DNA from: a candidate division FCPU426 bacterium
Lineage (GTDB): Bacteria; Oederibacteriota; Muellerivitia; Muellerivitales; Muellerivitaceae
NCBI GenBank assembly: GCA_963771075.1
Contig: CAVYSE010000008.1
Span: 34,317-98,316, forward strand
DNA length: 64,000 nt
Direction: 5' to 3'
Shown here: positions 7,890 through 56,743 of the stretch, piece by piece
Layout of the letters: each line of letters begins with the position of its first letter
Numbering within the stretch: the stretch's first letter is position 1
Translations under genes and position numbers: made by a program
Notes under the pieces: model-generated
What the model saw: the letters and a program-made list of their open reading frames with translations, nothing else
Databases searched by the model: none
Told to the model about the DNA's origin: nothing

Positions 7890-7926
7890 GTTGCACACCA
7901 TCCTTTTTGGGAGGGCCATGTGCAGG
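7890..7926. repeat. 37-bp junction hairpin element, copy 1
   Basis: GTTGCACACCATCCTTTTTGGGAGGGCCATGTGCAGG. Confidence 0.9.
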
Positions 7927-8420
7927 GGTCCATCGTCTCGAATAATTCAAAATCGGCCGAAAAGTTCATCCACGGGATTAAGGTCTTAATGGCCAAAAAC
8001 TACGTGGATAACCTCTCTGAGGAAACTCGCAAGGGGATGACTGAAAAGGCGGCGGAAGGGATATGGCCATCCGCCGCTCCCCTTGGTTACAAGAACATTG
8101 CCGGGCGTGACGGCAAGCGAACCATAAAGCCGGATTCCAAAATGAGCAGGATCATTTATTCCCTGTATAAGGACTATTCAACGGGGCGTTATTCCCTCAC
8201 TGAAATAACTAAGAGGGACTGGAATAAAGGGTTGGTGGTCCGGAAAAGCAAAAAGATTCTTTCCAAGAGTACAGTTTATAAAATTCTAACTAACCGGATG
8301 TATACGGGGGTGTTCCAATGGAGAGAGATAAATTATCGGGGTAAGTACAAGCCTATCATTCCGCAAAAACTTTGGGATAAAACCCAGAAGGTTATGGAAA
8401 AACACTTCAAGTTAAGATAA
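7927..8420 (+). pseudogene. 5'-truncated near-identical copy of the serine recombinase at 45686-46519
   Basis: Matches ~46026-46519 from GSIVSNNSKSAEK onward; lacks the catalytic YVRVSS segment. Confidence 0.9.
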
Positions 8421-8475: not shown

Positions 8476-9621
8476 TTACGACAGTTTCATCCACCAGGGC
8501 GGTTGAAGTTTATGGGGCTTGCGGCCCACGGCAAATGGTGCGAGATCCATTTCCGTTTTCCCGTCCAAAATCAATTGCGTCATCAGGTGTCCACTAGCGG
8601 CTGCCAGAAGATGCCCATGCGTGTGGTGGCCCGCCGCGATAAAAAGCCCGTCCGTTCCCGGAACCGCGCCCAGGAAAGGGTGGCCGTCCACCGAACCGGG
8701 GCGGAAACCGGCGAAATAACCCGACACTCGTAGCGGCGACAAGGTCGGTGCCATGCGCCTGGCCGCAGTCGCCAGGGTCGCAATGCCTTCAGGTGTCACA
8801 GCCCGCTCAAACCCGGCTTTTTCCAAGGTACTCCCGACGTACAATTCGCCGCCCCGGCGCGGCACCATATAGTACCCGGTCGCGAAGAGGATATGCTTGA
8901 TCCCTGAAGGGGGACCTTGAAGAAGCAGTACCTGTCCCCGAAGGGGATACACCGGCAAATTGATCCCGAGCGGGCTCAATAGTTCCGGCGCCCAAGCCCC
9001 AGTGGCCAACACCACTGCGTCGGCTTCGATCATCCGTTTGCCTGTTTTCACCCCTTGAATTTTTCCGCCGCGAACCACCAACGACTTCACCGGTTCGTTG
9101 GAGTGAATAGGCACTCCGGCTTTCCATACCGCTTTCACCGCCGTCAGACACATGGCTGAGGGGCGAATCTGGATGGTTTCGGGCAGGTACATGGCCTTGC
9201 GGACATCTTTCGGCAAGGCGGGTTCCTTGCGGCGAGCTTCCTTGTTGTTCAACCACCGAACCACCATACCCAATTGCTCCAGGCGTTTCGAAAGCGTCCT
9301 CGCGTTCTTTTCTTCCATCGCAGAAAACAAAAGCCCCATCGAACCCGACTTCTCCCATTCGGGGTCCACCCCGGAGACGCGGTGAAGTTCCTTCACCCAG
9401 GACGGGTACAGGCAGTAGGACAAACGGCTTAGTTCATAGAGTTCCGGGGTATCGAATGCCACACTGTGGAGGGGCAACATCCCCGCACCAGCGGCGGATG
9501 CTTCTTGCGCGGGCTCGTGACGATCCAGAACTACTGGCCGTGCACCGCGTTTTTTGAGGTGCCAAGCGATGGAGAGGCCGACGAGGCCCCCACCCACCAC
9601 GAGAACTTTTGTTTTATTCAT
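8476..9621 (-). CDS. thiO: Glycine oxidase ThiO-like FAD-dependent oxidoreductase
   Basis: VVGGGLVG, EASAAGAGML, PLRGQ, YMVPR and AGFRPGS motifs. Confidence 0.8.
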   Translation of the reverse strand: MNKTKVLVVGGGLVGLSIAWHLKKRGARPVVLDRHEPAQEASAAGAGMLPLHSVAFDTPELYELSRLSYCLYPSWVKELHRVSGVDPEWEKSGSMGLLFSAMEEKNARTLSKRLEQLGMVVRWLNNKEARRKEPALPKDVRKAMYLPETIQIRPSAMCLTAVKAVWKAGVPIHSNEPVKSLVVRGGKIQGVKTGKRMIEADAVVLATGAWAPELLSPLGINLPVYPLRGQVLLLQGPPSGIKHILFATGYYMVPRRGGELYVGSTLEKAGFERAVTPEGIATLATAARRMAPTLSPLRVSGYFAGFRPGSVDGHPFLGAVPGTDGLFIAAGHHTHGHLLAAASGHLMTQLILDGKTEMDLAPFAVGRKPHKLQPPWWMKLS

Positions 9622-9722
9622 GTTTTCTCCCAGGTTCAGAAAAAAAGGGTCGGATCGCGGGCTGGCGCGACGATCTCTTGGTTTGGTTTCCAACCTTCAA
9701 CATTTCGAACATAACATTTGGT

Positions 9723-9750
9723 TGTCCAGGATGGGTCCCCGTCATGGACA
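9723..9750 (+). repeat. att-like dyad site (array 2, site 2)
   Basis: (GT)TGTCCA-GGAT-GGG-TC-CCC-GTCA-TGGACA(AC). Confidence 0.85.
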
Positions 9751-29654: not shown

Positions 29655-32219
29655 TTAGCTCCTTAAAAAATCCGGGTCGTTTCCGGTGAATTCGTCTTGA
29701 GTGAGTCGAAGGATGGCTTCCCAAGCCCCCTCCTGGTTTTCATCAGGGTTGTAATACTCCATGTATTTCGCCCTGCGGTTCTTGTCCACCGGGTAGCTGG
29801 TGGCGATCCACCTGATCACCGGGTCCGGGCAAACGTAAGCGAGGCCCTGCCGGGCCGAACTGTGGATGAAGCATTGGGAATAAACGTTCCTGACCTGGTG
29901 GAGGCCTCCGATAATGGCGGACTCCTTTTCCCCCAGCTCGAAGGCCCCCACGCACAAAGCCCGGTCGGCGTCCCCAAGCTTCATGAAAATCTTGGTGGCG
30001 GCGTTGTCCAAGGCGGTCTTAGCCTTCTCAGAAGCCATGCAATCGGCTATTTTTTGGGTTGCGAAAATGTTGACGAGGGAAAGATGGCGGGAAGTCCTCG
30101 AAAGAATATCCGCGAAATCCTGGCCAGCCGAAAAGGATAGTAAGTCCCAAAACTCATCTATCCCGATGATCGGGTATTCGCCTTCCTGCTGGGCCTTCCG
30201 GGCCTGGGCAAAGCAATAAGTCGAGACAATGTAGGTCACCATGGCCTTGACCTTCTCCCGCTTGGCCGCAAGGGACGTGTCGAAGACGATAAAGCGGGTT
30301 TTCCGGTCGATGTTGGTTTCCCGGTCGGTGATGTTGGCGAAAGTCCCGTCCTCCGTGTATTGGGTCAAAACTTCGGCATAGGTCGAGCAAAGCTCCGCGC
30401 CCTGGGCGGATCGGTCGGCATCCTTGGCCATTGCGATAAGTTGTTTCCTCAAGTCCCTTAGCAAGGGGGGTGGGAGTTCCACACCTTCCTTCTTCTCTCT
30501 GTCGAATTTAGCCTTGTATGTCTTCTTGATGGCCTCCAAAAGGACGGAGTTGGCCACGTTTGAAAGTGAAGATTCCCCCGTCTCGGTCAAAAGGGTCGTC
30601 AAGAAACCAAGGATGGTTTCCTCCTGGTCCTCGGAGACGATTCCCTTCTTCTGGTAGCTTTCCTCGGGGCAATCGAAGGCGTTGATGTGCTTCTCGCACT
30701 TCAAATCGAAATAGATGTATTCCCCACCCGCCACCAAACAGGATGTTTTGTAGGCCCCGGATCGGTCGATGAGCATGACCTTGGGATCGGACGGCATGAG
30801 CCGGTCGAGGATCGTCTGGATGATGAAACTCTTGCCCGTCCCGGGCTGGCCAAAAACGCCTATGTTGTAGTTTTCCGCCTGGGGATTCCAAAGGTTCAGG
30901 GAGAGAGGTTCATTCGAGGCCGTATGGCCAAGAATGACGCCCTTCTCGACCGTCAAGCTGTCGAAGAAAAAGGGCCAAAGATTGCAAAGGTCCACGGTCA
31001 TTTGGAGCCGTTCAACCCGGTCCCTGACCTGGTTGCTCATGAGGGGGAGGGTCGAATAGAAAAGTTCCTCCTGCTGGTAGTAACCGTCGTAACGGTGGAT
31101 GCCCTCGAACCGGGAAGTAAAATTCTCGTAGTTGTTCTTAAGCTCCTTCTCGGAGTTTCCGTATACGGAAATGAACAAGGAAACCTGGCCCAAGCCGGTT
31201 TCCTTTTGGGCGATAGCGGCCAGGACGGAGTCCCGCTTCCGCCAATTCGCGGCGGCGTCATAGTTGGGGGTCGTGCCGTCGTCCCCGGTGGCCTGGTCTA
31301 TCCTGAGCTGGGAACGAATGAGACTTTTCCCCAGCTCCTGGTCCATGCCACGGATGAAGAAAGTAACCTTGAAGTCCTCTTTCTGGTAAAGGAATTCCGA
31401 AAGGAAATGATCGGGCCTCCCCACTTCGGGGAAATTGGTAACACTCATGGTCCTAACGTATTTCTCCCCCACCTTCACGAAAGCCGGGTCGGAAAGAACC
31501 GGCTGGGCCGAAATGGCCTCGCGGAGGGTTTCCAGGCCCCCGGGCCCTGCAGAAACCGGCGCCGCTTTCCTAAAGCCCCGGGTTTCTCCCTTGAAATCCA
31601 TCAAATTGATCTCGGAGTAAAGAAGCCTGTAAATTTCGTCCTCTTTAAGCTCCGTGGCCACGACCCCGGTCACGCCTAAAATGTGGGTCCAGGTTTTCGC
31701 GCGTCTTTTGACTTCCTCCAGGTGGGCGGACCGGGTTTCGGAGTCTTCCACCTTGTTCTTTTTCTTTCCAAAAACGTTTGAGAGGAAACCCACGGCCATT
31801 TCCGACAAAGGCAATAGGTTGAAGTCTATCGAGAAAAGCAAAAAGACCTCGTAACCGCATAGCCGGTTGTTGAGGAGAAAATCCGAAATCCAACCCTCGT
31901 AATAGGGGGCGAAATGATGCTGGTATCCATCCGGGGCGCTTTCCTTGATGGTTTCCTTGAAGTGACTGATAAGCCCGGTGGGATCGGCGGGGACCCGCCT
32001 CAAGATGACCTGGATTTCCTCGTTGGGCCTTAATTGCCGGATGGCGTTCTCGAAGGAACCAAGCTTGACGTTGGTCGATCCCCGGTCCTCGATGAGGGGG
32101 TTGATTCCCCCCGTAATCCTGTAAACGGAAGAAAAGCGCCCTCTCCTGGATTCAATAAATCCATCCCCCACCCGGGCCAGGTCGATGGATTCCGCCGGGA
32201 CGTTAGTTGAATAAGGCAT
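29655..32219 (-). CDS. virB4: VirB4/TraC-family conjugative ATPase
   Basis: 854 aa; GQPGTGKS, LIDRSG.Y, HINAFD, IVFDTS, GIDEFW and SRH...ATQ. Confidence 0.88.
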   Translation of the reverse strand: MPYSTNVPAESIDLARVGDGFIESRRGRFSSVYRITGGINPLIEDRGSTNVKLGSFENAIRQLRPNEEIQVILRRVPADPTGLISHFKETIKESAPDGYQHHFAPYYEGWISDFLLNNRLCGYEVFLLFSIDFNLLPLSEMAVGFLSNVFGKKKNKVEDSETRSAHLEEVKRRAKTWTHILGVTGVVATELKEDEIYRLLYSEINLMDFKGETRGFRKAAPVSAGPGGLETLREAISAQPVLSDPAFVKVGEKYVRTMSVTNFPEVGRPDHFLSEFLYQKEDFKVTFFIRGMDQELGKSLIRSQLRIDQATGDDGTTPNYDAAANWRKRDSVLAAIAQKETGLGQVSLFISVYGNSEKELKNNYENFTSRFEGIHRYDGYYQQEELFYSTLPLMSNQVRDRVERLQMTVDLCNLWPFFFDSLTVEKGVILGHTASNEPLSLNLWNPQAENYNIGVFGQPGTGKSFIIQTILDRLMPSDPKVMLIDRSGAYKTSCLVAGGEYIYFDLKCEKHINAFDCPEESYQKKGIVSEDQEETILGFLTTLLTETGESSLSNVANSVLLEAIKKTYKAKFDREKKEGVELPPPLLRDLRKQLIAMAKDADRSAQGAELCSTYAEVLTQYTEDGTFANITDRETNIDRKTRFIVFDTSLAAKREKVKAMVTYIVSTYCFAQARKAQQEGEYPIIGIDEFWDLLSFSAGQDFADILSRTSRHLSLVNIFATQKIADCMASEKAKTALDNAATKIFMKLGDADRALCVGAFELGEKESAIIGGLHQVRNVYSQCFIHSSARQGLAYVCPDPVIRWIATSYPVDKNRRAKYMEYYNPDENQEGAWEAILRLTQDEFTGNDPDFLRS

Positions 32220-42441: not shown

Positions 42442-42447
42442 GCGTCA

Positions 42448-42476: not shown

Positions 42477-42517
42477 TAAAAAAGGTTTTAAGCCGGTCCC
42501 CCGCGAGGGGGGTCTGA

Positions 42518-42850: not shown

Positions 42851-42874
42851 GAAAAGCCTCCTTAAGATAATTAT

Positions 42875-43069: not shown

Positions 43070-43078
43070 GGATCGTCC

Positions 43079-43255: not shown

Positions 43256-43274
43256 TGTTGAGACTCCTTGCTGA

Positions 43275-43753: not shown

Positions 43754-43816
43754 GACCCGCGCGGCGCTGGGTCCGTGGCCAGGCCCTTTAGGGCCCGGCC
43801 TGGTCCTCGGGGTTCT

Positions 43817-44002
43817 TTAATAAAACCTTGCCCCGTAAGTTCTTTGAAGGTTGAGCCGGTGCTTAGCCCGGTCCACCGCTTCTTTTTTTGTGGTGCCGTA
43901 TCCAAAGACTCCGGGTTTGCCCTCATCCTTGAACCAAGCTCCAAAGGTCGTCCTGTTCTCCCACCAAACCTTGAATCCGTTTCCCTGTTCCAAAATCCTC
44001 AT
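43817..44002 (-). CDS. Small hypothetical protein
   Basis: AAGGAG RBS; GYGTTKKEAV motif. Confidence 0.45.
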   Translation of the reverse strand: MRILEQGNGFKVWWENRTTFGAWFKDEGKPGVFGYGTTKKEAVDRAKHRLNLQRTYGARFY

Positions 44003-44011
44003 GGCGGCTCC

Positions 44012-44212
44012 TTAGTTGAATTCCCATTGCTCCCGGATATCCGGGGAACAGTCAGGGCAAAGGTGGTGGCTGTGATGAGGGGTGGCTTTCATTCGAACCC
44101 CGCACCCTGGGCAGGTGAATTCGGATAGATGGGGCGTTTCCCGCCCCATCCTTTCCGGTATGTAGTCGAACCCCATCTTGTGTTGTAGCGTCCTGGGCTT
44201 ATTCCCGCTCAT
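44012..44212 (-). CDS. Small zinc-ribbon protein
   Basis: CPGC...CPDC; coupled to the ardC stop. Confidence 0.5.
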   Translation of the reverse strand: MSGNKPRTLQHKMGFDYIPERMGRETPHLSEFTCPGCGVRMKATPHHSHHLCPDCSPDIREQWEFN

Positions 44213-45102
44213 TGGGCGGCTTCCTTCTTTTCGTGTTTCACCTTGAGGATGAAATCGACGGCCCTCTGTGCGTGGGAAGCGGCGTGAATGATCGCCTGTT
44301 TGTCGTCTTTCAAAACCTTGAGCCAAGAGGCGATATAAGATGAGTGGGCGCTGTTGTAAGCGAGGCCAATATGTGACGAGAGAAAAGACCCCCCCAACTC
44401 CGCCACTAATTCCTCGAATGCGTAAGCCTCTGAACCAAACCGGCCTGAAAAATTCCGGTTGAGCCTCGAAACGTGGCCGCTGGCGTGGGTCAATTCGTGA
44501 AAAACCGTGTTGTAAAGCCCTTGGGTGGATTTGAAGGAATCCCTCGAAGGAAGGGTGATCTTGTCGGTGGCCGGGGAATAAAAAGCCTTATCCATGCCGC
44601 TGAAAGAAATGCTCACCCCGGAATCGGCCATGATCTTCTCGCCCTCCTCGATGGGGTCCACGGTCATGAGAATGTTCTTCGCCTTGAGGGCGTCCAGTCC
44701 CTCGGTCTGGTCCAGGTTGAAAACGTGGTAAACCTTGAGAAGGGGGAAGCTCTCGATCTTGGCTTTGCCCTGGTCGTCCAGTTCCTCGCCCTTGTGGGTC
44801 AAAATGTCATAAAAAACAATCTCGCTTGATTTCTCGCCCTTCTTGATTCGTCCCCCTAAGTCGGTGGCCTGTTTGAAGGTCAGCCAGGCCGGGCACGAAT
44901 ACTGCTTGAAAGCCCTGACGTAGGAAAGAATCAGGATATTTACTCCCCGGTATTCCTTCCCCGTGGATGCGTTCTTTGGGATTGCGCTGAACCAATCCTT
45001 TTCCCACGGCATGACGCCTTTGGCCAGGTCGCTCAAAACCCTTTCCGTGATTTCCTCCATGGCCGCTGTTGATTTGTTTTGCTTCGTACCCGTCTTTTCC
45101 AT
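44209..45102 (-). CDS. ardC: ArdC antirestriction protein (ssDNA-binding + zincin domain)
   Basis: PWEKDW, YRGVN, WLTFKQA, VFNLDQ, AFYSP..D.I, HELTHASGH..RL.R, YAFEELVAE and SYIASW. Confidence 0.92.
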   Translation of the reverse strand: MEKTGTKQNKSTAAMEEITERVLSDLAKGVMPWEKDWFSAIPKNASTGKEYRGVNILILSYVRAFKQYSCPAWLTFKQATDLGGRIKKGEKSSEIVFYDILTHKGEELDDQGKAKIESFPLLKVYHVFNLDQTEGLDALKAKNILMTVDPIEEGEKIMADSGVSISFSGMDKAFYSPATDKITLPSRDSFKSTQGLYNTVFHELTHASGHVSRLNRNFSGRFGSEAYAFEELVAELGGSFLSSHIGLAYNSAHSSYIASWLKVLKDDKQAIIHAASHAQRAVDFILKVKHEKKEAAQ

Positions 45103-45119
45103 ATCGCTTCTCCTTTGTT

Positions 45120-45597
45120 TGATTAGAGGAGAGAGCGGCCTCCGGGACCGCCCCCCCACAAAGACTTGGGGGCGGTCACGGAGCGAAAGAGGTGTTCGCC
45201 TATAGAAAATCGAAGTCCGGGGGTTGTGCGCTTAGGTGTTAGCAAACGGGGATTTCTCTCCCCCATCTGTGCTGGCCGGATAAGACGACGGAGGAGTCCC
45301 GGCCAGGGGGAGAGAAAAGGCGCTGACCGGTCCCCGCCACGAAGTGGCCCCCGGATTCGGTTTTCGTCCACGTTGCTGTGCGACGCCGGGCATATCAGGG
45401 GTTACTTCCCCTGATTAGGGAAGAGTTTGATGACGGGGATCTTCCCGTCTCAAGGGGAGACGGAGGGGCTAACAGCCCACTCGGGCTAGGAAAAGGTGAA
45501 GGGAAGGGGTTCTTCCCTGCCCTTCGAGTTTAAAAGCCTTTAGAGGAAACCTACACGGCCCACGGGAAGCCTTACCGCCCTGGGACGGCGAGGTTTC
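45120..45597. repeat. ~480-bp structured repeat, copy B
   Basis: Directly upstream of ardC. Confidence 0.85.
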
Positions 45598-45685
45598 TTT
45601 CACCATGGCCGTTACGATGTCGGGTGGGCTAAAAAGCCAAAGAAGATAATCCTCTCTGAATAACCCTTATCTCAAAGGAGAGGAA

Positions 45686-46519
45686 ATGAAAACTGCCATC
45701 GTCCCCAAACAGCCAACCCAAGCGGTTCTTTATGTCCGGGTATCTTCCAAGGAACAGGAAAAAGGGGGGTTCTCCATCCCGGCCCAATTGAGATTGCTTC
45801 GGCAATATGGTGAAACCCAAGGGTTCACCATCATCAAAGAATTTCGGGACGTTGAAACGGCCAAGCAATCTGGCCGTGAAGGCTTTGGTGAGATGGTTAA
45901 TTACCTTCTGAATAATTCAAACTGCAAATATTTATTGGTCGAGAAAACTGATCGCCTTTACCGGAATTTCAAGGATTACGTTTCGTTGGAAGATATGGAT
46001 GTTGAGATCCACCTGGTTAAAGAAGGTTCCATCGTTTCGAATAATTCTAAATCGGCCGAAAAGTTCATCCACGGGATTAAGGTCTTAATGGCCAAAAACT
46101 ACGTGGATAACCTCTCTGAGGAAACTCGCAAGGGGATGACTGAAAAGGCGGCGGAAGGGATATGGCCATCCGCCGCTCCCCTTGGTTACAAGAACATTGC
46201 CGGGCGTGACGGCAAGCGAACCATAAAGCCGGATTCCAAAATGAGCAGGATTATTTATTCACTTTATAAGGACTATTCGACGGGGCGTTATTCCCTCAAG
46301 GAAATAACTAAGAGGTACTGGAATAAAGGGTTGGTGGTCCGGAAAAGCAAAAAGATTCTTTCCAAGAGTACGGTTTATAAAATACTAACTAACCGGATGT
46401 ATACGGGGGTGTTCCAATGGAGAGAGATAAATTACCGGGGTAAGTACAAGCCTATCATTCCGCAAAAACTTTGGGATAAAACCCAGAAGGTAATGGAAAA
46501 ACACTTCAAGTTAAGATAA
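45686..46519 (+). CDS. Short serine recombinase (resolvase catalytic + recombinase domain; no zinc ribbon/coiled coil)
   Basis: YVRVSSKEQ, KTDRLYRN, APLGY, ILTNRMYTG and KPIIPQKLWDKTQ, then stop at 277 aa. Confidence 0.9.
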   Translation: MKTAIVPKQPTQAVLYVRVSSKEQEKGGFSIPAQLRLLRQYGETQGFTIIKEFRDVETAKQSGREGFGEMVNYLLNNSNCKYLLVEKTDRLYRNFKDYVSLEDMDVEIHLVKEGSIVSNNSKSAEKFIHGIKVLMAKNYVDNLSEETRKGMTEKAAEGIWPSAAPLGYKNIAGRDGKRTIKPDSKMSRIIYSLYKDYSTGRYSLKEITKRYWNKGLVVRKSKKILSKSTVYKILTNRMYTGVFQWREINYRGKYKPIIPQKLWDKTQKVMEKHFKLR

Positions 46520-46533
46520 TCAGTAGTACTGAG

Positions 46534-46561
46534 TGTTCCTTTTGGGTCCCCGTCGTGGACA
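46534..46561 (+). repeat. att-like dyad site 1
   Basis: TGTTCC-TTTT-GGG-TC-CCC-GTCG-TGGACA. Confidence 0.85.
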
Positions 46562-46623
46562 AGTTTAGAACGCTGGGTTACCAGGGATAAATGTTCGGTT
46601 CCCACTAAATTCCCACATTCCAA

Positions 46624-46651
46624 TATTTGAAATAGCTCCCCGTCGTGGACA
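46624..46651 (+). repeat. att-like site 2 (left arm degenerate)
   Basis: TATTTG-AAAT-AGC-TC-CCC-GTCG-TGGACA. Confidence 0.7.
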
Positions 46652-46666
46652 AACAAATATTTCTAT

Positions 46667-47332
46667 TTATCGTTGGCGTCGTTTAAATATTGGCAAGTTA
46701 AACAGATCAGCCAAGGTATACTTTTCCTCTGTTATTAACTTAACTTCCGCTTCTAGCTTTTTTACTATTTCGCCTAATCTCAATTCAACCACATCTTCTT
46801 TGCTACTTCGCCATATTAGATCTCCAGCTTGTTCTATTAACTGTAAATCAGCTTCTGATTGAACATAAACTTGGTTTGTCGCCTTCTCGTACCAATGCTC
46901 CCTCATAATATCCGCACCCCAAATTATGTCATTCCATAACTTGTTCGCGTCGGTATAAATTTCTTCCGCAGGTTTTCCAAACCTCGCCATCGTTGTGTAT
47001 TTAAGCTTAAAAAAATTATTAATGTATTCTTTTCCGGAATTATAGCGTGCATAAAATACATAGCCTTGGTCTTTTGCATGAACAACTTCAGGTGGATCGC
47101 TTTTCTCTTTTTCTGATTTAGGTCTCGAAGCGCTTTCTGCTGTTGACGAAAGTGGGTTTCTTATATTCCAAATTGAATCTTTGAAAGCGTAAATCGAAGC
47201 CAACCATTCTTCAGCCAATTCAATTCTTCGTTTAGAAATAAATTCTTGCCGCCAAATACTTAAAGTTGCAATACCCACCCAAATCCCCACCAAAATAGAA
47301 ATCGATTGAAGAATTTGGATCGCCTCATTCAT
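46667..47332 (-). CDS. Cassette gene: N-terminally anchored hypothetical protein
   Basis: AT-rich 221-aa ORF with one TM followed by helices. Confidence 0.7.
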   Translation of the reverse strand: MNEAIQILQSISILVGIWVGIATLSIWRQEFISKRRIELAEEWLASIYAFKDSIWNIRNPLSSTAESASRPKSEKEKSDPPEVVHAKDQGYVFYARYNSGKEYINNFFKLKYTTMARFGKPAEEIYTDANKLWNDIIWGADIMREHWYEKATNQVYVQSEADLQLIEQAGDLIWRSSKEDVVELRLGEIVKKLEAEVKLITEEKYTLADLFNLPIFKRRQR

Positions 47333-47390
47333 TTAATTTATCCTTTTCCAAGAACAGCGAATGAAAAACCAAAACCATTTCTACAATTCT

Positions 47391-47418
47391 TGTTTTTTCA
47401 GGGTTCGGGACGTGGACA
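47391..47418 (+). repeat. att-like site 3 (degenerate)
   Basis: TGTTTT-TTCA-GGG-TT-CGG-GACG-TGGACA, same 16-bp spacing. Confidence 0.55.
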
Positions 47419-47477
47419 ATTTAATTACCACGATTTAAAACAACTAAATGTCTAAATATTCTTGCTAAAGGTTTTTT

Positions 47478-49155
47478 TCAGTTATTGGCCAATTGTATTT
47501 TGCGAATTAAGTGGTTTAATAATTCTGTCACATAAATATTATTAGAAGCATCAACTGCGATACCAACGGGACAATTAAATGAAGAGGAATTTCTTTTTCC
47601 ATTTCTAGAGCCTTCTTTTCCTGAACCGGCTAATGTTTTTACCATACCATCAGTAGTTATTTCCCGAATTAGGTTATTATTCCTATCAACCACAAGGATA
47701 GACCCCGTTTTTTCCACGGCGATTCCATCAGGATGATTAAAAGTTGCAATGGCAACCTTCCCATTTCTTGACCCTCTAATTTTTGCTTGCCCAGCAACTG
47801 TGCTTACAACCCCATTTATATTTATTTTTCTAATTAAATTGTTCACCGAATCTGCTACAAAAACTTCGCCAGCAGAATTTACTGCAATTCCTTCTGGGTT
47901 GTAGAATGAAGCGGAAATCCCTTCCCCGTTTTCTGAACCTTTTGAGCCTGATCCTGCAATTGTTGTCACCAATCCAGCCGGAGTAATTTTTCTTATGAGT
48001 TCATTTTGAGTATCCGCAACATAGATATTACCCGAAGAATCCACAGTAATTCCTTCCGGAGAATGAAACATCGCGTAACATTGAATCCCATTAGCGGACC
48101 CAGGTTTTCCATTTCCCGCTAAAATTGTAAGCTTTCCATCACAAGTGATTTTAAAAATTGCGTTTTCAGCTGAATCCGCCACATAAATATTATCCTTGGA
48201 ATCAATCGCAACTCCTACAGGGCTAACAAATAAAGAATCAGAATGATTTTCCCTTAAACGACACATCAAATTTTGTTACCAAACCATTAGGATTAATTTT
48301 TCGAATTGATTCCCCTGATGCAACAAAAATGTTTCCGTGGGAATCTAAAGCGATGCCCCTTGGGTGAGAGAATGAGGCCTCAATTCCTAAACCATTCTTG
48401 TAACCAATTTCGCCTGAACCTGCGAAAGTCGTAACAATCCCACCATTTTTTTCTTCCGATCCATTTGAAAATAAAGGGAAGGCATGAAAATGCTGTTGAA
48501 TGAATATGCCAGCAATCACAAGGAAAATAATTATTACAGGCAAACGGTTCCTAAAAATCAAATGCTGGACTTCCTCATTCCTAAAATTGAACCCGCACTC
48601 CAAACAATAGGCAGCTTTAATCGGGTTTTTGGTTTTACATTCTGGACAGGCTTTGACTTGGCCTTTTACTGTTGTGGCCGGGTGTTCTCTATTTTCCATC
48701 CCTTCTTCCACTGCTTCTTTTAGAACCATTAATTTTGGAACTGATTTTGTTACTCTTATCACTTTGGTTCCGGTGATCCGGTCATGCCATCCTCGGGGAG
48801 TTTCATCGCCACTTAAAAAAGAGAATGGCTCAAAAGGTATACAACGACACATAGCGCGGGTTAAAACATTCCAAATATTCAAATTTGTCCCGTCTTCCTT
48901 GACGGCTTTGGTCCTAGTGATTATTTTCCCAATGGTTCTTCCCCCAAAAATTTCCTGGGAGAAATAAATGACCGCCAATATAAAACCGAGACTGTATTGA
49001 CCTAAATGTTTTGTGAGTTCGGCCAAACCGATCGAACCCAAGAAATAACCGATGCCATATCCAATTTCTTTCCCAAAAACGTTTATGAGGAGGTAGAAAA
49101 TAAATATATCGATCAGGTAATTGGCTAGTCTTTGGTTTTTTGTGGCCAGTTCCAT
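47478..49155 (-). CDS. Cassette gene: RDD + zinc ribbon + NHL-repeat protein, split by one frameshift near 48245
   Basis: RLANYLID, GRTIGK and RGWHDRITGT; CPEC/CLEC; repeated P.GIAVD..GNIYVAD. Confidence 0.8.
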
Positions 49156-49297
49156 TTGCTTTCCTAAAATGAATAAGAACCGAGATTTATTCTAAAAATC
49201 AAAGGATAGGCCTTCCTTGCCGTTTTCCAAGCAATCTAGAATTATAATTCGGCTTTAACTACCCTTCTTCTGAAGCCTTTTGTTCTCGTAATTTTCA

Positions 49298-49325
49298 TGT
49301 CCAAGAAGGGTCCCCGTCGTGGACA
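49298..49325 (+). repeat. att-like dyad site 4
   Basis: TGTCCA-AGAA-GGG-TC-CCC-GTCG-TGGACA. Confidence 0.88.
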
Positions 49326-49368
49326 CCCCAAAAATGGTTAATGGGGGCCTGACCTCGTTTTTTTAGAG

Positions 49369-50289
49369 TCACGCCAGGATCATATCAATCTTGTTCAAGT
49401 CATCGTCGGTCAAGTGCCAGTCGGCGGCAGCGGCGTTCTTGGCGATCTGTTCGGACTTGGTTGCACCGGCGATGACCGAGGCGACGGACTTCCGAGTGAG
49501 CAGCCAAGAAAAGGCGAGTTCGAGGATTGTGTGGCCCCGCGATTCAGCGAAAACAATCAGCTTCTCGACGATGTCCAGGTTCTTGTCGGTCAATAGGTTC
49601 GAGAAGTTATTATCGGACTTGATGCGTGCGCCTTCGGGAAGGCGCTGCCCTTGGCGGTATTTGCCCGTGAGCAGGCCGCTAGCAAGGGGGAAGTAGGGCA
49701 GAAACGCGATTCCGAGTTTCTCGCACTCGGGGAGCACCTCGGCCTCGGGGTCGCGTTTCAACAGGCTGTAGTCGTTCTGGACACTGACGAAGTGCACCGC
49801 GCCCCGCGTGACGGCGGCCCTGGCCTCTCGCAGTTGTGCGGCGGAGAAATTAGAGCAGCCAATCTCACGAACCTTACCGGCCTGGACGAGTTCATTGAGA
49901 ACTCCTAGCGTGTCGGCGATGGGTATCGTGTCGTCGGGCAGGTGCAATTGATACAGATCAATGCGATCGGTATTGAGTCGCCGCAGGCTGTCCTCGACGG
50001 CCCTGCGGATGTACTCAGGTTTGGCCCCGCCGGGCATGGCGTCGTTGATGGGAGCGCCGAACTTTGATGCCAGTATCACCTGATCTCGACGCATCCCCAG
50101 CGCGTTCCCCAGAAACTCCTCGCTCTTGGTGCCGCCGTAGATGTCGGCGGTGTCGAAGAAGTTGATGCCGGCGTCGAGACTGGCGTCAATGACGCTTTTT
50201 GTGGCGTCGGCGTCAATGCGCCCGCCGAAGTTGTTGCAGCCCAGCCCAACGACCGAAACGTTGAGCGACCCAATCTTGCGTGTCTCCAT
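49369..50289 (-). CDS. Cassette gene: aldo/keto reductase
   Basis: GLGCNNFG, FFDTADIYG, SLRRL.TDRIDLYQLH and PLASGLLTGKY. Confidence 0.92.
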   Translation of the reverse strand: METRKIGSLNVSVVGLGCNNFGGRIDADATKSVIDASLDAGINFFDTADIYGGTKSEEFLGNALGMRRDQVILASKFGAPINDAMPGGAKPEYIRRAVEDSLRRLNTDRIDLYQLHLPDDTIPIADTLGVLNELVQAGKVREIGCSNFSAAQLREARAAVTRGAVHFVSVQNDYSLLKRDPEAEVLPECEKLGIAFLPYFPLASGLLTGKYRQGQRLPEGARIKSDNNFSNLLTDKNLDIVEKLIVFAESRGHTILELAFSWLLTRKSVASVIAGATKSEQIAKNAAAADWHLTDDDLNKIDMILA

Positions 50290-50380
50290 GTGATATTCTC
50301 TCGTGTTCTAAAATCAACTTCGTGAAGTCGTATGCTCTCAGAATACCCCGAATCACCGGAGGGTTTCGTTCATATTTTAT

Positions 50381-50407
50381 TGTCCAATCCGGGTCCCGTC
50401 GTGGACA
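50381..50407 (+). repeat. att-like dyad site 5
   Basis: TGTCCA-ATCC-GGG-TC-CC-GTCG-TGGACA (1 bp short). Confidence 0.82.
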
Positions 50408-50517
50408 AGGAAAGAATCCTAAATTAATAAAAGACTTGGTTTAAGTTTGCTGAGTCTTTAAATGTTAAAAGTTTCTCCCCTTATCGTGGGTGTAATCTTT
50501 TTAATGGCAGATTTAGC

Positions 50518-51285
50518 TCAGGCAAGCGTCAGAACCCTGGGACCTTTTTTTGTAATAGCAACGCTGTGTTCCCAGTGAGCGGCCAGTCCCCCTTCTCGGC
50601 TGACCACCGTCCAACCGTCTTGGAGAATCCGAACCGCGCCGCTACCCAAGACCAACATCGGTTCGATCGCCAAGACCATTCCAACCTTCAGTTCCGGACC
50701 GGAACCCCGGCGCCCATAATTAGGTACCATAGGGTCTTCGTGCATTTCGCGGCCAATGCCGTGGCCCACGAAATCCCTGACAATGCCATAGCCTTTTTCA
50801 TTGGCCAAAGCTTCGATGGCGGCCCCCAAATCGCCGAGGTGTTTTCCAGGCTGGCATTCGCGAATCGCGGCATCAAGCGCTATCCGGGTGTTGTCCAGGA
50901 GATCTCGTGCAGGAGCGCTGATAACGCCCACCGCGATGGTACGGGCCGCATCCGCACTGTAACCGTTCTTTTGGCAGGCAAAGTCGATGCCGATGATGTC
51001 CCCTTCTTGAAGAATCGCTGCCTTATCGGGAATGCCATGTACGACAACATCATTGATCGAGGTACAAAGAACAGCTGGGTAAGGCGAAACCGGCCCAGGT
51101 TGATAACCCAAGAACGACGATCGCGCCCGTTCCCGGCTCAAGATATCAAAAGCGATCTCATTCAACCGGGCCGTCGTGGTTCCAGGCACGCAAGCGGCTT
51201 CAACCGCGTCCAGCACAGCCGCAACAACGCGTCCCGTTTCGCCCATAAGATTAATTTCTTCCCCGGTCTTTAAAACGATACCCAT
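50518..51285 (-). CDS. map: Cassette gene: type I methionine aminopeptidase
   Basis: CTSINDVVVHGIP, GHGIG..MHEDP, AIEPM and AHWEHSV. Confidence 0.92.
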   Translation of the reverse strand: MGIVLKTGEEINLMGETGRVVAAVLDAVEAACVPGTTTARLNEIAFDILSRERARSSFLGYQPGPVSPYPAVLCTSINDVVVHGIPDKAAILQEGDIIGIDFACQKNGYSADAARTIAVGVISAPARDLLDNTRIALDAAIRECQPGKHLGDLGAAIEALANEKGYGIVRDFVGHGIGREMHEDPMVPNYGRRGSGPELKVGMVLAIEPMLVLGSGAVRILQDGWTVVSREGGLAAHWEHSVAITKKGPRVLTLA

Positions 51286-51433
51286 GACCCCTCCTTGAAC
51301 TAAGAAAAATTATGCCGGTCTCCATCTTGAAGTACAACACCTTGGGGAGGGAGGTTCATCTCCTACCGACCTTTTCTTGAAACCATCCCAAACCCTCGTT
51401 GGGATCAGGGATTGGCCAAACACTGCTTTTCCC

Positions 51434-51462
51434 TGTCCACTGCTGGGTCCCCGTCGTGAACA
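51434..51462 (+). repeat. att-like dyad site 6
   Basis: TGTCCA-CTGCT-GGG-TC-CCC-GTCG-TGAACA. Confidence 0.8.
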
Positions 51463-51648
51463 AGGATCATGCTATTTAACTTCAAAATCCTTCAACCCTT
51501 TTGGCCAAAGTACCATTAATTCATCTCCTTCAATAAACGAAAAAGGCATTTGCCGGTTCCAAATCGGACAGGCGGCTATTTTATTCTTCCGGTTGCGCAA
51601 CGTCCAAGGCTGCGCGATGGATTGCGCCAAGACCGAGATTACTCCAAG

Positions 51649-52245
51649 TCAGGGCCGAACGGTGGTTGCCTTAAGACCGTCAAGGATCACCGTGAACAGC
51701 TGTCGCTGGCGCGCCGAAAGGTACGGCTCCTGATCGCCGATCCATGCCATGGCGTTGACAAGCGCAAAGAGGTCATTCACTCCGATATCGGGGCGTATTT
51801 GTCCGCTCGCCTGCGCGCGCTTGAGCATAAGGTCGAGCCCTTGGCGGACAGCCACGCAGGAGGAGTGGAGCGGCGACTTCGTGTCCTTGAAGCTGCCCAT
51901 GAGAGAGGAGGCGACGCCCCGATAAATGGCAACGGCGGCCATATACTCACGCAAACAAGTCGTCAAGGCCGCGCCAGGATCGTCAGCCGATGCGGCCAAT
52001 CGTGTCTTTTCCGCGAACACCTCAAGGCGCTCACGAAGTAGCGCCTCAAGCAAAGCCTCACGTGAGGGGAAGTGACGATAGAGCGTACCTAGGCCGACGC
52101 CCGCCCGGCGTGCGATGTCGCGCAAAGAAGCGTTCGTGCCACGCTCGGCTATCACGGTATGTGCGACCCGCAGTAACCGGGAGTAGTTACTTCGCGCGTC
52201 GGCGCGTTTACCGTCTGGGCCGTCCAACATTGTTTTCTTTTTCAA
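51649..52245 (-). CDS. TetR-family regulator
   Basis: RADARSN...IARRAGVGLGTLYRHFPSREAL. Confidence 0.9.
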   Translation of the reverse strand: MKKKTMLDGPDGKRADARSNYSRLLRVAHTVIAERGTNASLRDIARRAGVGLGTLYRHFPSREALLEALLRERLEVFAEKTRLAASADDPGAALTTCLREYMAAVAIYRGVASSLMGSFKDTKSPLHSSCVAVRQGLDLMLKRAQASGQIRPDIGVNDLFALVNAMAWIGDQEPYLSARQRQLFTVILDGLKATTVRP

Positions 52246-52260
52246 GGTTTAAATCCTCGA

Positions 52261-52312
52261 TTGACAAACGGTTCGCTGCTCCGTATATATTGTAAGCGGA
52301 GCGGTGATCCGT
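52261..52312. promoter_or_regulatory. Divergent promoter/TetR operator region
   Basis: TTGACA-17bp-TATATA; two CGG-N9-CCG imperfect palindromes. Confidence 0.55.
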
Positions 52313-52327
52313 ATAAAGTATATCACC

Positions 52328-52528
52328 CCGGATTTCCCAAATGAAATTTCTATACGAGTATAAGTTGAATTTTCTGCCTTTTGGATCTGTTGGGATTTCG
52401 GTTTGGATGATTTCGACAGCTGGATTTGATCGGAGATGTCAAATTCCGGTGGAAAATATGGAGGGCAGTATTATGAACGCCAACTTACCCGGCAACGATG
52501 CTGGACAACTTCATCCGGGAAATCCCGG
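52328..52528 (+). mobile_element. ~200-bp MITE related to the IS1380 element
   Basis: The left end CCGGATTTCCCAAATGAAATTTC...CGAGTATAA and right end TTACCCGGCAA...CATCCGGGAAATCCCGG resemble both ends of 21689-23391. Confidence 0.75.
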
Positions 52529-52595
52529 TTTGAATGTTTGGCTCAACTGCTCTTCCCAATCGCAATGGGGATGGGATTTGGGCAAGGAGGCCTAA

Positions 52596-53495
52596 ATGGA
52601 AAAAAACATCATCTATGTGTTTTCTGGAACCGGAAATAGCTTGAAGGCGGCAAGGGACATCTCGGCGGCGCTGGGGGATTGCAGGCTCATCTCAATGGGC
52701 ACCCGAGGCCAAGGCGAACCAGCGCGTGGGCTTGACACCATCGGATTCGTGTTCCCCACCTACTTCCGCGGCGAGCCAAAACAGGTGCGGGAGTTCATCC
52801 GGCGGCTTGATCTGCGGACGAACAAGGACGCCTATTTCTATGCCGTGACGACAATGGGACGCTATGACGGCAATTCGTTGAACCACATCATGAGGCTGCT
52901 GAAGAAAAAGGATGTCACGTTGAACTATTCCCGCGCGTTGGATATGTATTCGAACTACATCATCTCTTACGATATGAAGGACACGGTCGCGGAAGAAACA
53001 AGGCGGTCGGACGTGGCTCTAGGGCCAATCATCCAAGACATCAAGAACAGGACCACCAACAAAGCCGCCGGATGCGAGCCGCTACAAGAAGTCGCCTACA
53101 GGTCGCTGATCGCCTTCGCGCATGACATGGACAGGTATTACACTGTTTCAGGAGCATGTTCTGGTTGTGGAATCTGTGAAAAAGTCTGCCCAGTTGACAA
53201 CATTTGCCTGGATGACGCGGGCCATCCGAGCTTCCAACATCGCTGCGAGCAATGCGTGGCGTGTATCCAGTTCTGCCCAACGAGGGCGATCAACTACAAG
53301 GACCGAACCCAGAACCGGAAGCGTTACACCCATCCCGCGATCAATTACAAGGACCTGGCCGCGTTGAACGGCAAGAACGGCCCCAGACTGGGATGGGCCA
53401 AAGCTGTCGTTTATTCTTCGGTCGGCAACCAGTCGCGTCGCTCCGTTGTTTCAACGCTCCTCGCCAGGGCTCTATGGAAAATCTACGGCATGTGA
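52596..53495 (+). CDS. EFR1-family flavodoxin-fold/4Fe-4S ferredoxin protein
   Basis: FSGTGNS, GFVFPTY, CSGCGICEKVCP and CEQCVACIQFCP. Confidence 0.88.
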   Translation: MEKNIIYVFSGTGNSLKAARDISAALGDCRLISMGTRGQGEPARGLDTIGFVFPTYFRGEPKQVREFIRRLDLRTNKDAYFYAVTTMGRYDGNSLNHIMRLLKKKDVTLNYSRALDMYSNYIISYDMKDTVAEETRRSDVALGPIIQDIKNRTTNKAAGCEPLQEVAYRSLIAFAHDMDRYYTVSGACSGCGICEKVCPVDNICLDDAGHPSFQHRCEQCVACIQFCPTRAINYKDRTQNRKRYTHPAINYKDLAALNGKNGPRLGWAKAVVYSSVGNQSRRSVVSTLLARALWKIYGM

Positions 53496-53599
53496 CGTGA
53501 CTTGCTGTTCAGGCACGCCTGTTCCTGTAAATAAGAGGCCAAACCTGACCCCGTATTTCTTCCTCGGCGGCTTGTAGTTTCAGTAGCACAAGCAAGTAT

Positions 53600-54172
53600 C
53601 TAGGTTGGGCCGGACATTCGCGAGAGCTTCTCCTCAGAGTCGCTAGGTACGCGGCATGCGCTTTCATAGCGGTTCACGAGATTGAACCAACTCAGCATTA
53701 GAATCAATTTCCGCGTGTTATCCACGCCCCAACGCTCGATGGCCGCTTTCAGCAAATCGTCTCCGAGGGTCGCGTTATCCGCGATGTCGTCCGCCATCCG
53801 CGCGATCAAAACGACGGCTGAGTCTATTCCCGTGACTGGACCGTCAGCGGTGAGCGCCTCCACCTCGGTTTTTGAAAGCCCGCTATTGAGCGCTATACGA
53901 GTGGAAGCACGCATGGCATAAACGCAATTCAAGCGCACGGCGGTTCGCACGATCATGGCTTCCCGCAACCTGGCGTCGGCAGCGGAGCAGGCGAAGACCG
54001 CCTTCATTAGCGCGACAGCCGGGCCCGCGAGATCCCCCGCCGCCGCCAACGCGATTGCCCCATTGAGCGTTTTGTCAGGATTGAAATCACTTCCTAAGAC
54101 GGCTCGCGCTTCCTCGGCGGTTGGCATCGGCAAACAGATATCGGTCATTGCTCTCCTTAGTGGATCAGACAT
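53600..54172 (-). CDS. Carboxymuconolactone decarboxylase/AhpD-like protein
   Basis: RLREAMIVRTA...CVY...ALNSGL...WFNLVNR. Confidence 0.65.
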   Translation of the reverse strand: MSDPLRRAMTDICLPMPTAEEARAVLGSDFNPDKTLNGAIALAAAGDLAGPAVALMKAVFACSAADARLREAMIVRTAVRLNCVYAMRASTRIALNSGLSKTEVEALTADGPVTGIDSAVVLIARMADDIADNATLGDDLLKAAIERWGVDNTRKLILMLSWFNLVNRYESACRVPSDSEEKLSRMSGPT

Positions 54173-54229
54173 GAAAAATGGGGTCGGGCATCCATTATCC
54201 TGGCTACTACACCCTTGATCCTGGCACGG

Positions 54230-54257
54230 TGTCCACCCTGGGTCCCCATCGTGGACG
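54230..54257 (+). repeat. att-like dyad site 7 (array end)
   Basis: TGTCCA-CCCT-GGG-TC-CCC-ATCG-TGGACG. Confidence 0.8.
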
Positions 54258-54377
54258 ACCTTTTCCCTTTTGGTCCGACAATTTTACGCCTGATCGATTA
54301 AGAGCGAGATGCAATATTTTCTTAAATGAGCGCCGATTTATAAGGGCAAAGCCAAAATCGGCGCGATAAAAAAGGGG

Positions 54378-54403
54378 AGCGGGGGCAAAGCCCCCGCTTT
54401 TTT
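54378..54403 (+). terminator. Rho-independent terminator, possibly bidirectional
   Basis: AGCGGGGGC-AAA-GCCCCCGCT followed by a T run; A run upstream. Confidence 0.65.
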
Positions 54404-54475
54404 GATTTCCCTCAAAAGCTGAAAGCCCCGGCCTGGTGGCCAGGGCTCCGCTTCTAGTAAATTTTGAATTCCTTG

Positions 54476-54970
54476 TTAAGCCAAAAGCCCGGCTTGTCGG
54501 AAAGAAAAGTGGCCCTCATGGGTCACGATAACGTGGTCATGGACGGTGATTCCAAGCGCACGGCAAGCGGTGACAATCTGGCGTGTGAGCTGGCGGTCGC
54601 CCTCTGAGGCTTCAAGGCTTCCTCCGGGGTGGACGTGGCTCAAGATGATTCCAGAAGCGTCTAGCTCCAAAGCCTTCTTGAGGACTTCCCTCGGGTAGAC
54701 GGCGGTATGGTCAACGGTTCCCTCTCCTCCGGCGATTACGTCCAAAACGTGGTTGCGGTGGTCAACGTACATGGTCAAGAAAATCTCGACCTTCTTCCCG
54801 CCTATCCATTTGCGGAAATAATCGGCTGCGTCTCCGGGGCCGGATAAAGCGGGTCCCCTCTTGTAATCGGCTCGAGCTTCAGCCCATGAAACCGGAATAG
54901 TGGTCGGAGGTATTTTGAACATCACGTCTAAAGTCATTTCGAGTTGTTTGGGTTTCCTGTTCATGACCAT
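54476..54970 (-). CDS. RadC-family JAB-domain protein
   Basis: GTVDHTAVYPREVLK, LSHVHPGG...SEGD and VHDHVIV. Confidence 0.88.
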   Translation of the reverse strand: MVMNRKPKQLEMTLDVMFKIPPTTIPVSWAEARADYKRGPALSGPGDAADYFRKWIGGKKVEIFLTMYVDHRNHVLDVIAGGEGTVDHTAVYPREVLKKALELDASGIILSHVHPGGSLEASEGDRQLTRQIVTACRALGITVHDHVIVTHEGHFSFRQAGLLA

Positions 54971-55092
54971 TCCCTCCCTTCCACCAAAACCATTTCCAAA
55001 GCCCTGTCAATTTCGGCTTCTGGAACGGGATGCTTTATCTCCTCCTCAAGAATCAATTTCGTTTCGATAAACTTCGTCATGAACTCGTTCAT
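54961..55092 (-). CDS. Small acidic protein, first gene after structured repeat C
   Basis: GGAGG RBS; overlaps the radC-like start. Confidence 0.4.
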   Translation of the reverse strand: MNEFMTKFIETKLILEEEIKHPVPEAEIDRALEMVLVEGREWS

Positions 55093-55118
55093 GTCACCCT
55101 CCGCATGATTTATTTGTT

Positions 55119-55597
55119 GGAGGGGAGCGGCCTCCGGGGACCGCCCCCCCAAAAGACTTGGGGGCGGTACACGGAGCGAAAAGGTGGGCGCTGTTGGTTC
55201 CAGAAATTCTTTGTTCCGGGGGAGTGCGTCTAGGTGTCAGCATCATCCGGGCAAAGCCCGTCCCATCTGTGCTGGCCGGATAGCCGACGGAGGAGGCCCG
55301 GCCAGGGACGGGGTTTAGGGGCGGAGGCCCCGGCCCGGACGGCGAAGCCGCCCGGAAAAAGGATTTCTTCCACGTTGTCGTACGCTGTGGGGGCTCCGGG
55401 GGTTACTTCCCCCGGGCTAGGGTGGGGAAAAAGGGGAGGGGGTTTTTCGTCCCTCCCCCTGGGGGGGTCCGGGGGATCTCCACCCGGGCCAGGAAAAGGT
55501 GAAGGGAAGGGGTTTCCCCCTTCCCTTCTTGGAAAAATTTTTAAAGGAAACCTACACGGCCCCGGGAAGACTTCCGCCCGGGGACGGCGAGGTTTCC
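55119..55597. repeat. ~480-bp structured repeat, copy C
   Basis: Near-identical to copy A over ~55209-55358. Confidence 0.88.
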
Positions 55598-55610
55598 TAC
55601 CTGCGCGAAA

Positions 55611-55931
55611 TTATTTGTAGCGGTGGGGCCTTACCAACCGGTCGGAAATCATATCCTTGGGATTCGTCTCCCTCATCTTTTTCAAAATCCGCTCATGGGT
55701 TCTTTGGTTGGGCTTGAGGAGTTTGACCCCCATGTGTTCCACCACGACACGTTTTAAATCTTCCGTCAAAGCATCCACGTCCCCCCCTCTCTTCCCGATT
55801 TCGTCCTGGTGGATTTTCTCGATAAGCGCAAACTCAATTAAGCGGTTTAAGTTGGTTCCCTTCTTCCTGGCGATTCCCCTTAATTGGTCAACACTGTATT
55901 TTTTCGGCCTGTAGGTAAATGTGTTCGCCAT
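55611..55931 (-). CDS. RHH-like DNA-binding protein (possible antitoxin)
   Basis: TFTYRP...LRGIARKKGTNLNRLIEFAL. Confidence 0.5.
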   Translation of the reverse strand: MANTFTYRPKKYSVDQLRGIARKKGTNLNRLIEFALIEKIHQDEIGKRGGDVDALTEDLKRVVVEHMGVKLLKPNQRTHERILKKMRETNPKDMISDRLVRPHRYK

Positions 55932-55934
55932 TTT

Positions 55935-56202
55935 TTATCCTTTCTCTATGTTGAAAAAGTAGATGTGAACCACACCATCTACAAAAGCCCCCTGGATTTC
56001 CGCCATCTGGTCATTTTCCAATTGGAAAGTGACCGTCCCATCCTTTTGATTCCTTAAGTCGAACCACCTTTTCGGTGGCCACCACCTTAAAGCGTCAATC
56101 CGCTGGTCCAAAAGGTCTTTTTGAAACTTCGTCAATCCGTTCTTACGGTCTGACATCAAAAAGTCGTAATTCTTTCTCGCTTCCACGTCCCATATAATTT
56201 CA
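55935..56202 (-). pseudogene. Possible RelE-like toxin clipped at its start by the 37-bp element
   Basis: EIIWDVEARKNYDFL..., about 88 aa, upstream of the RHH gene. Confidence 0.35.
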
Positions 56203-56239
56203 GTTGCACACCATCCTTTTTGCGAGGGCCATGTGCAGG
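56203..56239. repeat. 37-bp junction hairpin element, copy 3
   Basis: One mismatch (TTTTTGCGAGG) versus copies 1 and 2. Confidence 0.9.
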
Positions 56240-56716: not shown

Positions 56717-56743
56717 TGATGTGGGCGAAGCATGCCAAATAAG

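Follow-up and report, generated by a model that had tools for sequence, protein, structure and literature searches.

The locus studied here raises the question of how unrelated genes come to be strung between copies of a short symmetric sequence behind a short serine recombinase, and which enzyme put them there. It lies in a 64,000-nt stretch of the genome of an uncultured soil/peat bacterium (G000:C8:34317-98316; hereafter the window, to whose numbering coordinates refer unless a contig is named). A preliminary description of this DNA had reported seven same-orientation sites downstream of the recombinase stop codon and had proposed a gene-capture platform run by that recombinase. The sites belong to a real cassette system, in which units are mobile and the joints fall inside the sites, and comparisons of sequence suggest that a shortened large serine recombinase (LSR) probably drives this system.

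All seven reported sites are present, in one shared orientation and between open reading frames (ORFs). Four are clear (24.9-44.7 bits against a genome-trained matrix), but site 3 is decayed and sites 5 and 6 each carry a one-nucleotide indel; contigs of other sequencing runs have 28-bp forms at sites 5 and 6, though these could belong to different copies of it. The consensus first given for the site has five matches in the window against 0.03 expected, but is improved upon by TGTCCACGAYGGG-TC-CCCRTCGTGGACA. The switch in G+C content at site 4 is evident (0.44, 0.36 and 0.38 in the units before it; 0.57, 0.53 and 0.55 after it), and the spacer estimated at about 60 bp measures 62 bp. Pfam and NCBIfam agree with the calls of aldo/keto reductase, map (M24 peptidase), TetR, flavodoxin/ferredoxin, CMD and Resolvase plus Recombinase, while the RDD-NHL unit has both domains by Pfam but in a gene split into two overlapping ORFs. 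The 221-aa ORF (46667..47332), put down at the outset as a membrane protein, has no match in Pfam or NCBIfam to bear this out. The array comprises the following features:

45686..46519, plus strand: short serine recombinase, 277 aa, catalytic domain and recombinase domain (RD)
46520..46533, plus strand: 14-nt trailer from the stop codon to the first site
46534..46561, plus strand: site 1, 36.7 bits, whose left arm travels with the recombinase
46562..46623, no strand: 62-bp unit without an ORF
46624..46651, plus strand: site 2, 24.9 bits, degenerate left arm, TC and right arm intact
46667..47332, minus strand: cassette gene, 221 aa, no family match
47391..47418, plus strand: site 3, decayed, 8.6 bits, which is background level
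47478..49155, minus strand: RDD and NHL-repeat cassette gene, two overlapping ORFs, split near 48238-48269
49298..49325, plus strand: site 4, 44.7 bits, where G+C content rises
49369..50289, minus strand: aldo/keto reductase cassette (Pfam)
50381..50407, plus strand: site 5, 27 bp (one C missing)
50518..51285, minus strand: type I methionine aminopeptidase (map) cassette
51434..51462, plus strand: site 6, 29 bp (one base extra)
51649..54172, mixed strands: three-gene unit of tetR (minus), flavodoxin/ferredoxin (plus) and a CMD-family gene (minus) (Pfam)
54230..54257, plus strand: site 7, 36.2 bits

The preliminary picture of an array beside a recombinase needs to be widened, as the motif is genome-wide and order-wide and most arrays have no adjoining recombinase. 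An iterated position weight matrix, a check which that description had proposed, gives 103 sites of at least 16 bits in G000, as against zero when the genome is reversed; they form 27 groups covering about 136 kb, with 92 of the 103 in groups of two or more. A genome-wide motif had been named as a possible sign of a repetitive extragenic palindrome (REP), but the copies lie in co-oriented clusters, with 160 of 165 neighbouring pairs (less than 7 kb apart) sharing an orientation in G000 and 23 fetched loci of relatives, from which the unit counts are also taken. The median unit between sites is 800 bp long, and the longest ORF is antisense to the site as written in 123 of 132 units (units of 250-2500 bp with an ORF; eight intron-bearing and three ORF-less units set aside). 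In the 83 single-gene units, the median distance from start codon to site centre is 59 nt. Array contents are small unrelated genes and toxin-antitoxin-like pairs, as judged by eye from ORF lists that were scanned in part, HigA being confirmed once, outside a site pair. Site conservation ends about 14 bp out on each arm, and there is a single class of 28-30 bp. Of the genomes sampled, 23 of 26 within the order and none of 15 elsewhere in the phylum have the pattern, as do 29 of 32 genomes of the full order; viral contigs hold no exact match, and a variant pattern taken from two metagenome loci has none in the 32 genomes.

About 13 G000 sites carry a near-constant 37-nt hairpin within the right arm, giving a 65-nt site (including C26:73627, 134325, 135891 and 136818; C11:133945; C3:347198; C5:98258), and a diverged form is present in G002 (L143). 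At one contig end of G000 (C26:138321-144686), three cassettes and an intron are duplicated in inverted orientation, possibly through an assembly artefact, and some of the few opposite-orientation pairs come from there.

Comparison of cassette content among arrays, also proposed at the outset, bears out the expectation of mobility, with identical or related units bounded by sites in further arrays, genera and samples, where their neighbours differ. The sharpest case is a 416-bp unit, which is second in an array of G000 and first after the recombinase in G024, a member of another genus. The two copies do not differ at all from first-site position 14 through the next site; their flanks are unrelated, and the first site has mismatches at positions 5, 7, 9, 12 and 13. 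Although both genomes were assembled from metagenomes, identity that ends at sites is not what misbinning would produce. Six or more other units also recur, 67-87% identical, and have their ends at or close to sites. More generally, sites with a common left flank have the left arm in common and differ from position 19 onward, while among sites sharing only the right flank most differences lie in the left arm. Contigs of four public runs part from the window at sites 1, 4, 5, 6 and 7, or within them, and pass into other DNA; this comparison used contigs only, none spanning the region, with runs of word share below 0.2 left out and joints with 20-31-letter sides (site matching site) excluded. 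Mapping of empty sites at five chromosomal loci found 15 of 18 orthologous regions without a site, with flanks (70-85% identical) too diverged to place the insertion.

The recombinase trailer, sometimes with the last ~30 nt of the gene, followed by the left arm, also forms the end of other cassettes (L201 in G014, L203 in G020, L206 and L215 in G044, L204 and L210), which may be a clue to how cassettes form.

The recombinase itself consists of a catalytic domain (Pfam PF00239, E 5e-22) and an RD (PF07508, E 3e-11). It has 19 homologs of 275-283 aa (67-96% identity) with the same end point, and all 20 members of this clade stop after the RD, the zinc ribbon and coiled coil being gone (PF13408 is matched only in longer relatives), with Y16, R18 and S20 invariant. 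The next matches have 52-61% identity, and some are zinc-ribbon-bearing LSRs. The short forms constitute one clade (22 rows, SH-aLRT 100) in a tree built by a quick method with a weak outgroup (of rows L013, L029, L014 and L030, entered in the wrong orientation, two were dropped and two were meaningless). Pairwise ratios of nonsynonymous to synonymous substitution (dN/dS) are 0.05-0.16 where computable, indicating that the short recombinase is a maintained form rather than a fresh pseudogene, and the catalytic half is the most constrained part (0.02-0.09). A structure model (predicted local distance difference test score, pLDDT, 67) has serine integrase-DNA complexes as its top Foldseek matches, and its RD lies about 3 Å from those of 4kis and 6dnw over 131 columns. 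G000 has no other resolvase-family gene apart from three 5'-truncated copies of the recombinase, and a full-length LSR was not found in it. A metagenome scan gives at least two short-clade loci (two among the best 80 listed), and the short clade has no representative of its own among the top matches of a search of 50%-representative sequences.

Enzyme and site are linked first by position. A full site directly follows the short-clade 3' end (gene or remnant) in 16 of 19 places, a count that includes near-identical kin and one place (G002) found from the site side; it lies 9-37 nt past the stop codon where this is intact and is split by an intron in one case. Of the remaining three places, one has a contig edge inside the site, one has the left arm only and one, a 29-nt match, has none. 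The neighbourhoods of homologs, where arrays had been expected, divide on this point: in 102 loci of other homologs (691 kb) every score stays below 12 bits, and the highest two (11.5 and 10.6 bits) are those of LSR/tRNA junctions. Across the order, trailer plus site is found in 10 of 32 genomes and DNA matches to the recombinase 3' end in 9.

A second link is the likeness of the site to the attachment junction of full-length relatives, whose reading frames finish within a tRNA 3' end, antisense to it. When array sites alone are used to train a matrix of site positions 14-28, the LSR/tRNA C-terminal junction scores in the top 1% of the locus in 25 of 54 full-length relatives, which are kin and in which position 14 is partly fixed by the anchor. 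Of the 46 tRNAs of the genome, this matrix scores tRNA-Asn highest, with the register unchanged. The third link is site geometry. As excerpts of PMC3783163 describe LI integrase, the RD contact area is 13 bp and the zinc domain reads positions 16-24; a catalytic-plus-RD enzyme is therefore predicted to use a symmetric 13-2-13 site, and such a site is found. In the portion of PMC5499577 that concerns the coiled coil, its deletion allows excision in both directions, directionality being lost, and impairs integration. The proposed capture platform thus stands as regards cassette behaviour, while the part played by the enzyme is suggested by position, geometry and the relatives' attachment junction.

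The G000/G024 unit sets the left limit of the crossover at 13|14, and its identity from position 14 fits a predicted exchange at the central TC. By hand count, 14 left-degenerate sites keep T14 in 13 cases, TC in 11 and G13 in three; they were chosen by positions 16-28 alone from 41 rows, with recombinase-adjacent, indel, long-form, reverse-reading and duplicate rows excluded.

In the mechanism proposed here, we infer exchange by this enzyme, the exact cut, the circles and the action in trans. A tRNA-targeting LSR would have lost its zinc-ribbon and coiled-coil domains, leaving a catalytic domain and RD that would read only the inner 13 bp of each arm, and attP and attB would have merged into a single symmetric 13-TC-13 site that stems from the 3' end of tRNA-Asn. 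Each site would be occupied by a dimer, and two sites would swap strands at the TC overhang; between a co-oriented pair, the intervening DNA would be excised as a one-site circle, which could re-enter at any site. The intact gene with its own array would ride conjugative elements, other arrays being served in trans or left behind, and as a serine recombinase the 277-aa enzyme would be both minimal and bidirectional, with a site of 28 bp. The whole would amount to an independently evolved 'serine integron' (a tRNA-Asn-targeting integrase without directionality domains, a symmetric 28-bp site, an order-wide cassette pool crossing genera, conjugative spread, and group II introns as parasites and perhaps suppliers), a fuller picture that is mildly favoured.

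Several observations weigh against this mechanism. The intact short recombinase is present in five of 32 genomes, as against 29 with sites; G003 (99% complete, 20 matches) has neither the gene nor a remnant, and both G003 and G041 have many sites without an intact gene, a 3'-end match or a trailer plus site. Sites in genomes without the gene therefore require trans action or past visits, as is proposed for clusters of attC sites lacking integron-integrases (CALINs) in the part of PMC8618304 that treats them. The 28 bp can also be parsed as 11-6-11, and the kin within the 16-of-19 count lessen its force. The right limit of the crossover is only ≤18, positions 16-18 hardly varying, and the junctions, taken alone, would be compatible with a one-strand tyrosine exchange at 17|18. 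No circle joint is among the 11 joints listed for contigs of the four public runs. No natural LSR without a zinc ribbon is known to be active. An LSR without its coiled coil integrates poorly, according to the same portion of PMC5499577.

The model also leaves the one-way orientation of cassette genes unexplained, a further point on this side. A promoter scan gave chance level. Use of the site as a -35 box was considered and rejected, as no -10 box is enriched downstream of sites. Orientation could arise from selection for read-through or from cassette genesis by the two group II introns that home to the site, intron-based genesis being an idea from the integron literature.

Of the alternatives, the one that survives best, itself unlikely, holds that the host's single Xer-like tyrosine recombinase acts on a dif-like 11-6-11 site, as in pdif modules, with the serine gene a linked passenger. 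It accounts for arrays in genomes without the serine enzyme, and the Xer-like gene (G000:C6:114198-115232) has the range of the site (23 of 24 family genomes, the one other order member and none of 15 genomes outside the order, at E<=1e-30), which counts against the serine recombinase as well; yet a core gene of the order co-occurs trivially, is also present in the site-less G010, G019 and G022, and lies 26 kb from the nearest site. The excerpt of PMC6449649 describes pdif sites of 28 bp with one arm better conserved, and no classical dif for the Xer-like enzyme was found in G000 with a dif consensus pattern. The central 6-mers of pdif sites are variable, however, in contrast to a conserved centre here that departs from symmetry at 2 bp only; mismatches between partner sites occur at positions 12-13; and the match to the LSR/tRNA-Asn junction and the fixed place after the serine gene would be left unexplained.

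A second alternative, quite unlikely on the evidence, accepts LSR-derived sites but assigns the activity to a full-length tRNA-targeting LSR, or to the short protein with a missing partner, the short gene being a regulator or a conjugative-element resolvase and the arrays tandem piles of small integrated elements. Zinc-ribbon loss should reduce affinity, and full-length relatives with 47-56% identity are encoded within the order (G004, G014, G023, G024 and G025), but G000, which lacks one, has a cassette identical to that of another genus. The arrays of G000 do not lie at tRNA genes and so are not simply at the ancestral target; against this reading, no bases are conserved beyond ~14 bp per arm, where the zinc ribbon would bind, and the strongest constraint falls on the catalytic half of the short protein. 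Spread of a REP-like or intron-target palindrome by a Y1 (REP-associated tyrosine transposase, RAYT) enzyme or by group II introns, with foreign genes collecting near it as apparent cassettes, is very improbable, for although the 28-mer folds as a DNA hairpin, receives insertions of two group II intron families and shares G000 with 20 Y1_Tnp matches, such a match is absent from G021 (83 site matches) and G020 (38), the RAYT-like genes of G000 have another repeat, of 36 bp, at their flanks, arm pairing across 133 sites is no higher than in shuffles (no compensatory covariation), and this idea is largely refuted by arm swapping, each arm travelling with the flank on its own side, unlike a transposed palindrome.

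The preferred reading, a cut-down LSR carried between genomes, draws its mode of spread from the surroundings of the recombinase gene. Intact copies lie among ArdC- and RadC-like genes in G000, G044 and G020, and near other window-like DNA in G024 and G004. Because of these neighbours and of a VirB4-like ATPase in the window, the gene probably travels on conjugative elements. The backbone downstream of site 7 has a 98.7% identical copy on contig C12, likewise starting at a site. The context features and a second, smaller array of the window are:

7920..8420, plus strand: second recombinase copy, 5'-truncated, 97% DNA identity
8435..8462, plus strand: site after the truncated recombinase copy
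8476..9693, minus strand: thiO (glycine oxidase) cassette between two sites
9723..9750, plus strand: second site of the small array
29655..32219, minus strand: VirB4/TraC-like conjugation ATPase, context, match below curated cut-offs
44209..45159, minus strand: ArdC anti-restriction gene, conjugative-element leading region, context
54476..54970, minus strand: RadC/JAB gene, context

Both arrays thus carry extra copies of housekeeping-type genes as cassettes, thiO (8476-9693) and map (50518-51285), the latter 43% identical to a second map gene on contig C9. Three related ~500-bp intergenic repeats (43272-43763, 45110-45597 and 55106-55607; 73-83% identical; also on C12) lie upstream of small genes in the leading region and have no Rfam match, as is true of the whole of 40000-58000. 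A large secreted protein with long Thr/Pro-rich repeats is encoded at 59676-63053.

Two group II intron families are associated with the site. An intron of ~2 kb adjoins its outer edge, on either side, in 12 G000 copies (e.g. C2:54781, C5:78024 and C21:9639) and starts with two extra letters ahead of a usual-looking 5' end. The second family has inserted into the site itself, at 17|18 in G020 (L130, after the recombinase), and is also present in G000 (C5:94174 and C3:168479-169975). The first site of G020 had been considered as a TC crossover junction and was rejected, being a full site split at 17|18 by this intron. A separate 36-bp imperfect palindrome (REP-like) has ~30 copies in G000, often beside Y1/RAYT-like genes; window copies are at ~7892, ~10451 and ~56205, the first at the cut point of the second recombinase copy.

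No published description of such a cassette system was found at the level of titles and abstracts, a search beyond which lie most subscription papers and all supplements. If the serine-recombinase mechanism holds, the system is new in kind. Integrons are the textbook case of cassette capture and rest on one tyrosine enzyme with hairpin sites; cassette arrays derived from a serine integrase would represent convergent evolution, and a whole class would be missed by tools based on IntI and attC. The system would also offer a natural test of whether the zinc ribbon and coiled coil are necessary, and a compact recombinase-site pair.

Compared with integrons and CALINs, as described in part of PMC8618304, the arrays are alike in their units, which stand in tandem and in one orientation, mostly contain a single gene and have little DNA around it. 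Toxin-antitoxin-like pairs, enzyme-less arrays, group II introns at sites and cassettes common to several genera are further likenesses. The differences are the lack of IntI (the best TIGR02249 match in G000 is 41.8 bits against a cut-off of 265, and none of the 32 genomes has one at E<=1e-40 in a search without a positive control genome), a sequence-conserved 28-bp dyad exchanged in the middle and without structural covariation, and the direction of the cassette genes, which read towards the recombinase gene. Neither a distinct attI nor a Pc was found, the first site being a variant of the same 28-mer. Recognition as a folded single strand, a feature of attC, does not extend to this site, and Rfam is negative in 40000-58000 (the attC covariance model was not run specifically).

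With LSRs (LI/A118, Bxb1, phiC31, SPbeta; CcrA/B, XisF) the short enzyme shares the catalytic domain and RD, the 13-bp RD footprint and 53-60% identity to ~520-aa tRNA-targeting members. It differs in that both the zinc ribbon and the coiled coil are missing, in its single symmetric class of site rather than attP/attB/attL/attR, and in about 100 sites per genome rather than one pair; the distinct attP and attB of 40-50 bp that LSRs use appear to have no counterpart here, conservation extending no further out. The pdif modules of Acinetobacter (XerC/XerD) likewise have 28-bp sites around accessory gene modules, with one arm better conserved in the excerpt of PMC6449649. The present sites differ from them in an unrelated sequence, a conserved centre, direct orientation throughout and the link to a serine recombinase. 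Small serine resolvases and invertases (Tn3, gamma-delta, Hin) have a crossover site of ~28 bp with a central 2-bp overlap and bring about deletion between direct repeats. Here the DNA-binding part is an LSR-type RD rather than a short helix-turn-helix, many sites bound cassettes, and accessory sites such as those of the small resolvases were not seen. The system works like an integron yet falls outside the integrons, having neither IntI nor attC, and its recombinase is an LSR-derived enzyme without the domains that define LSRs.

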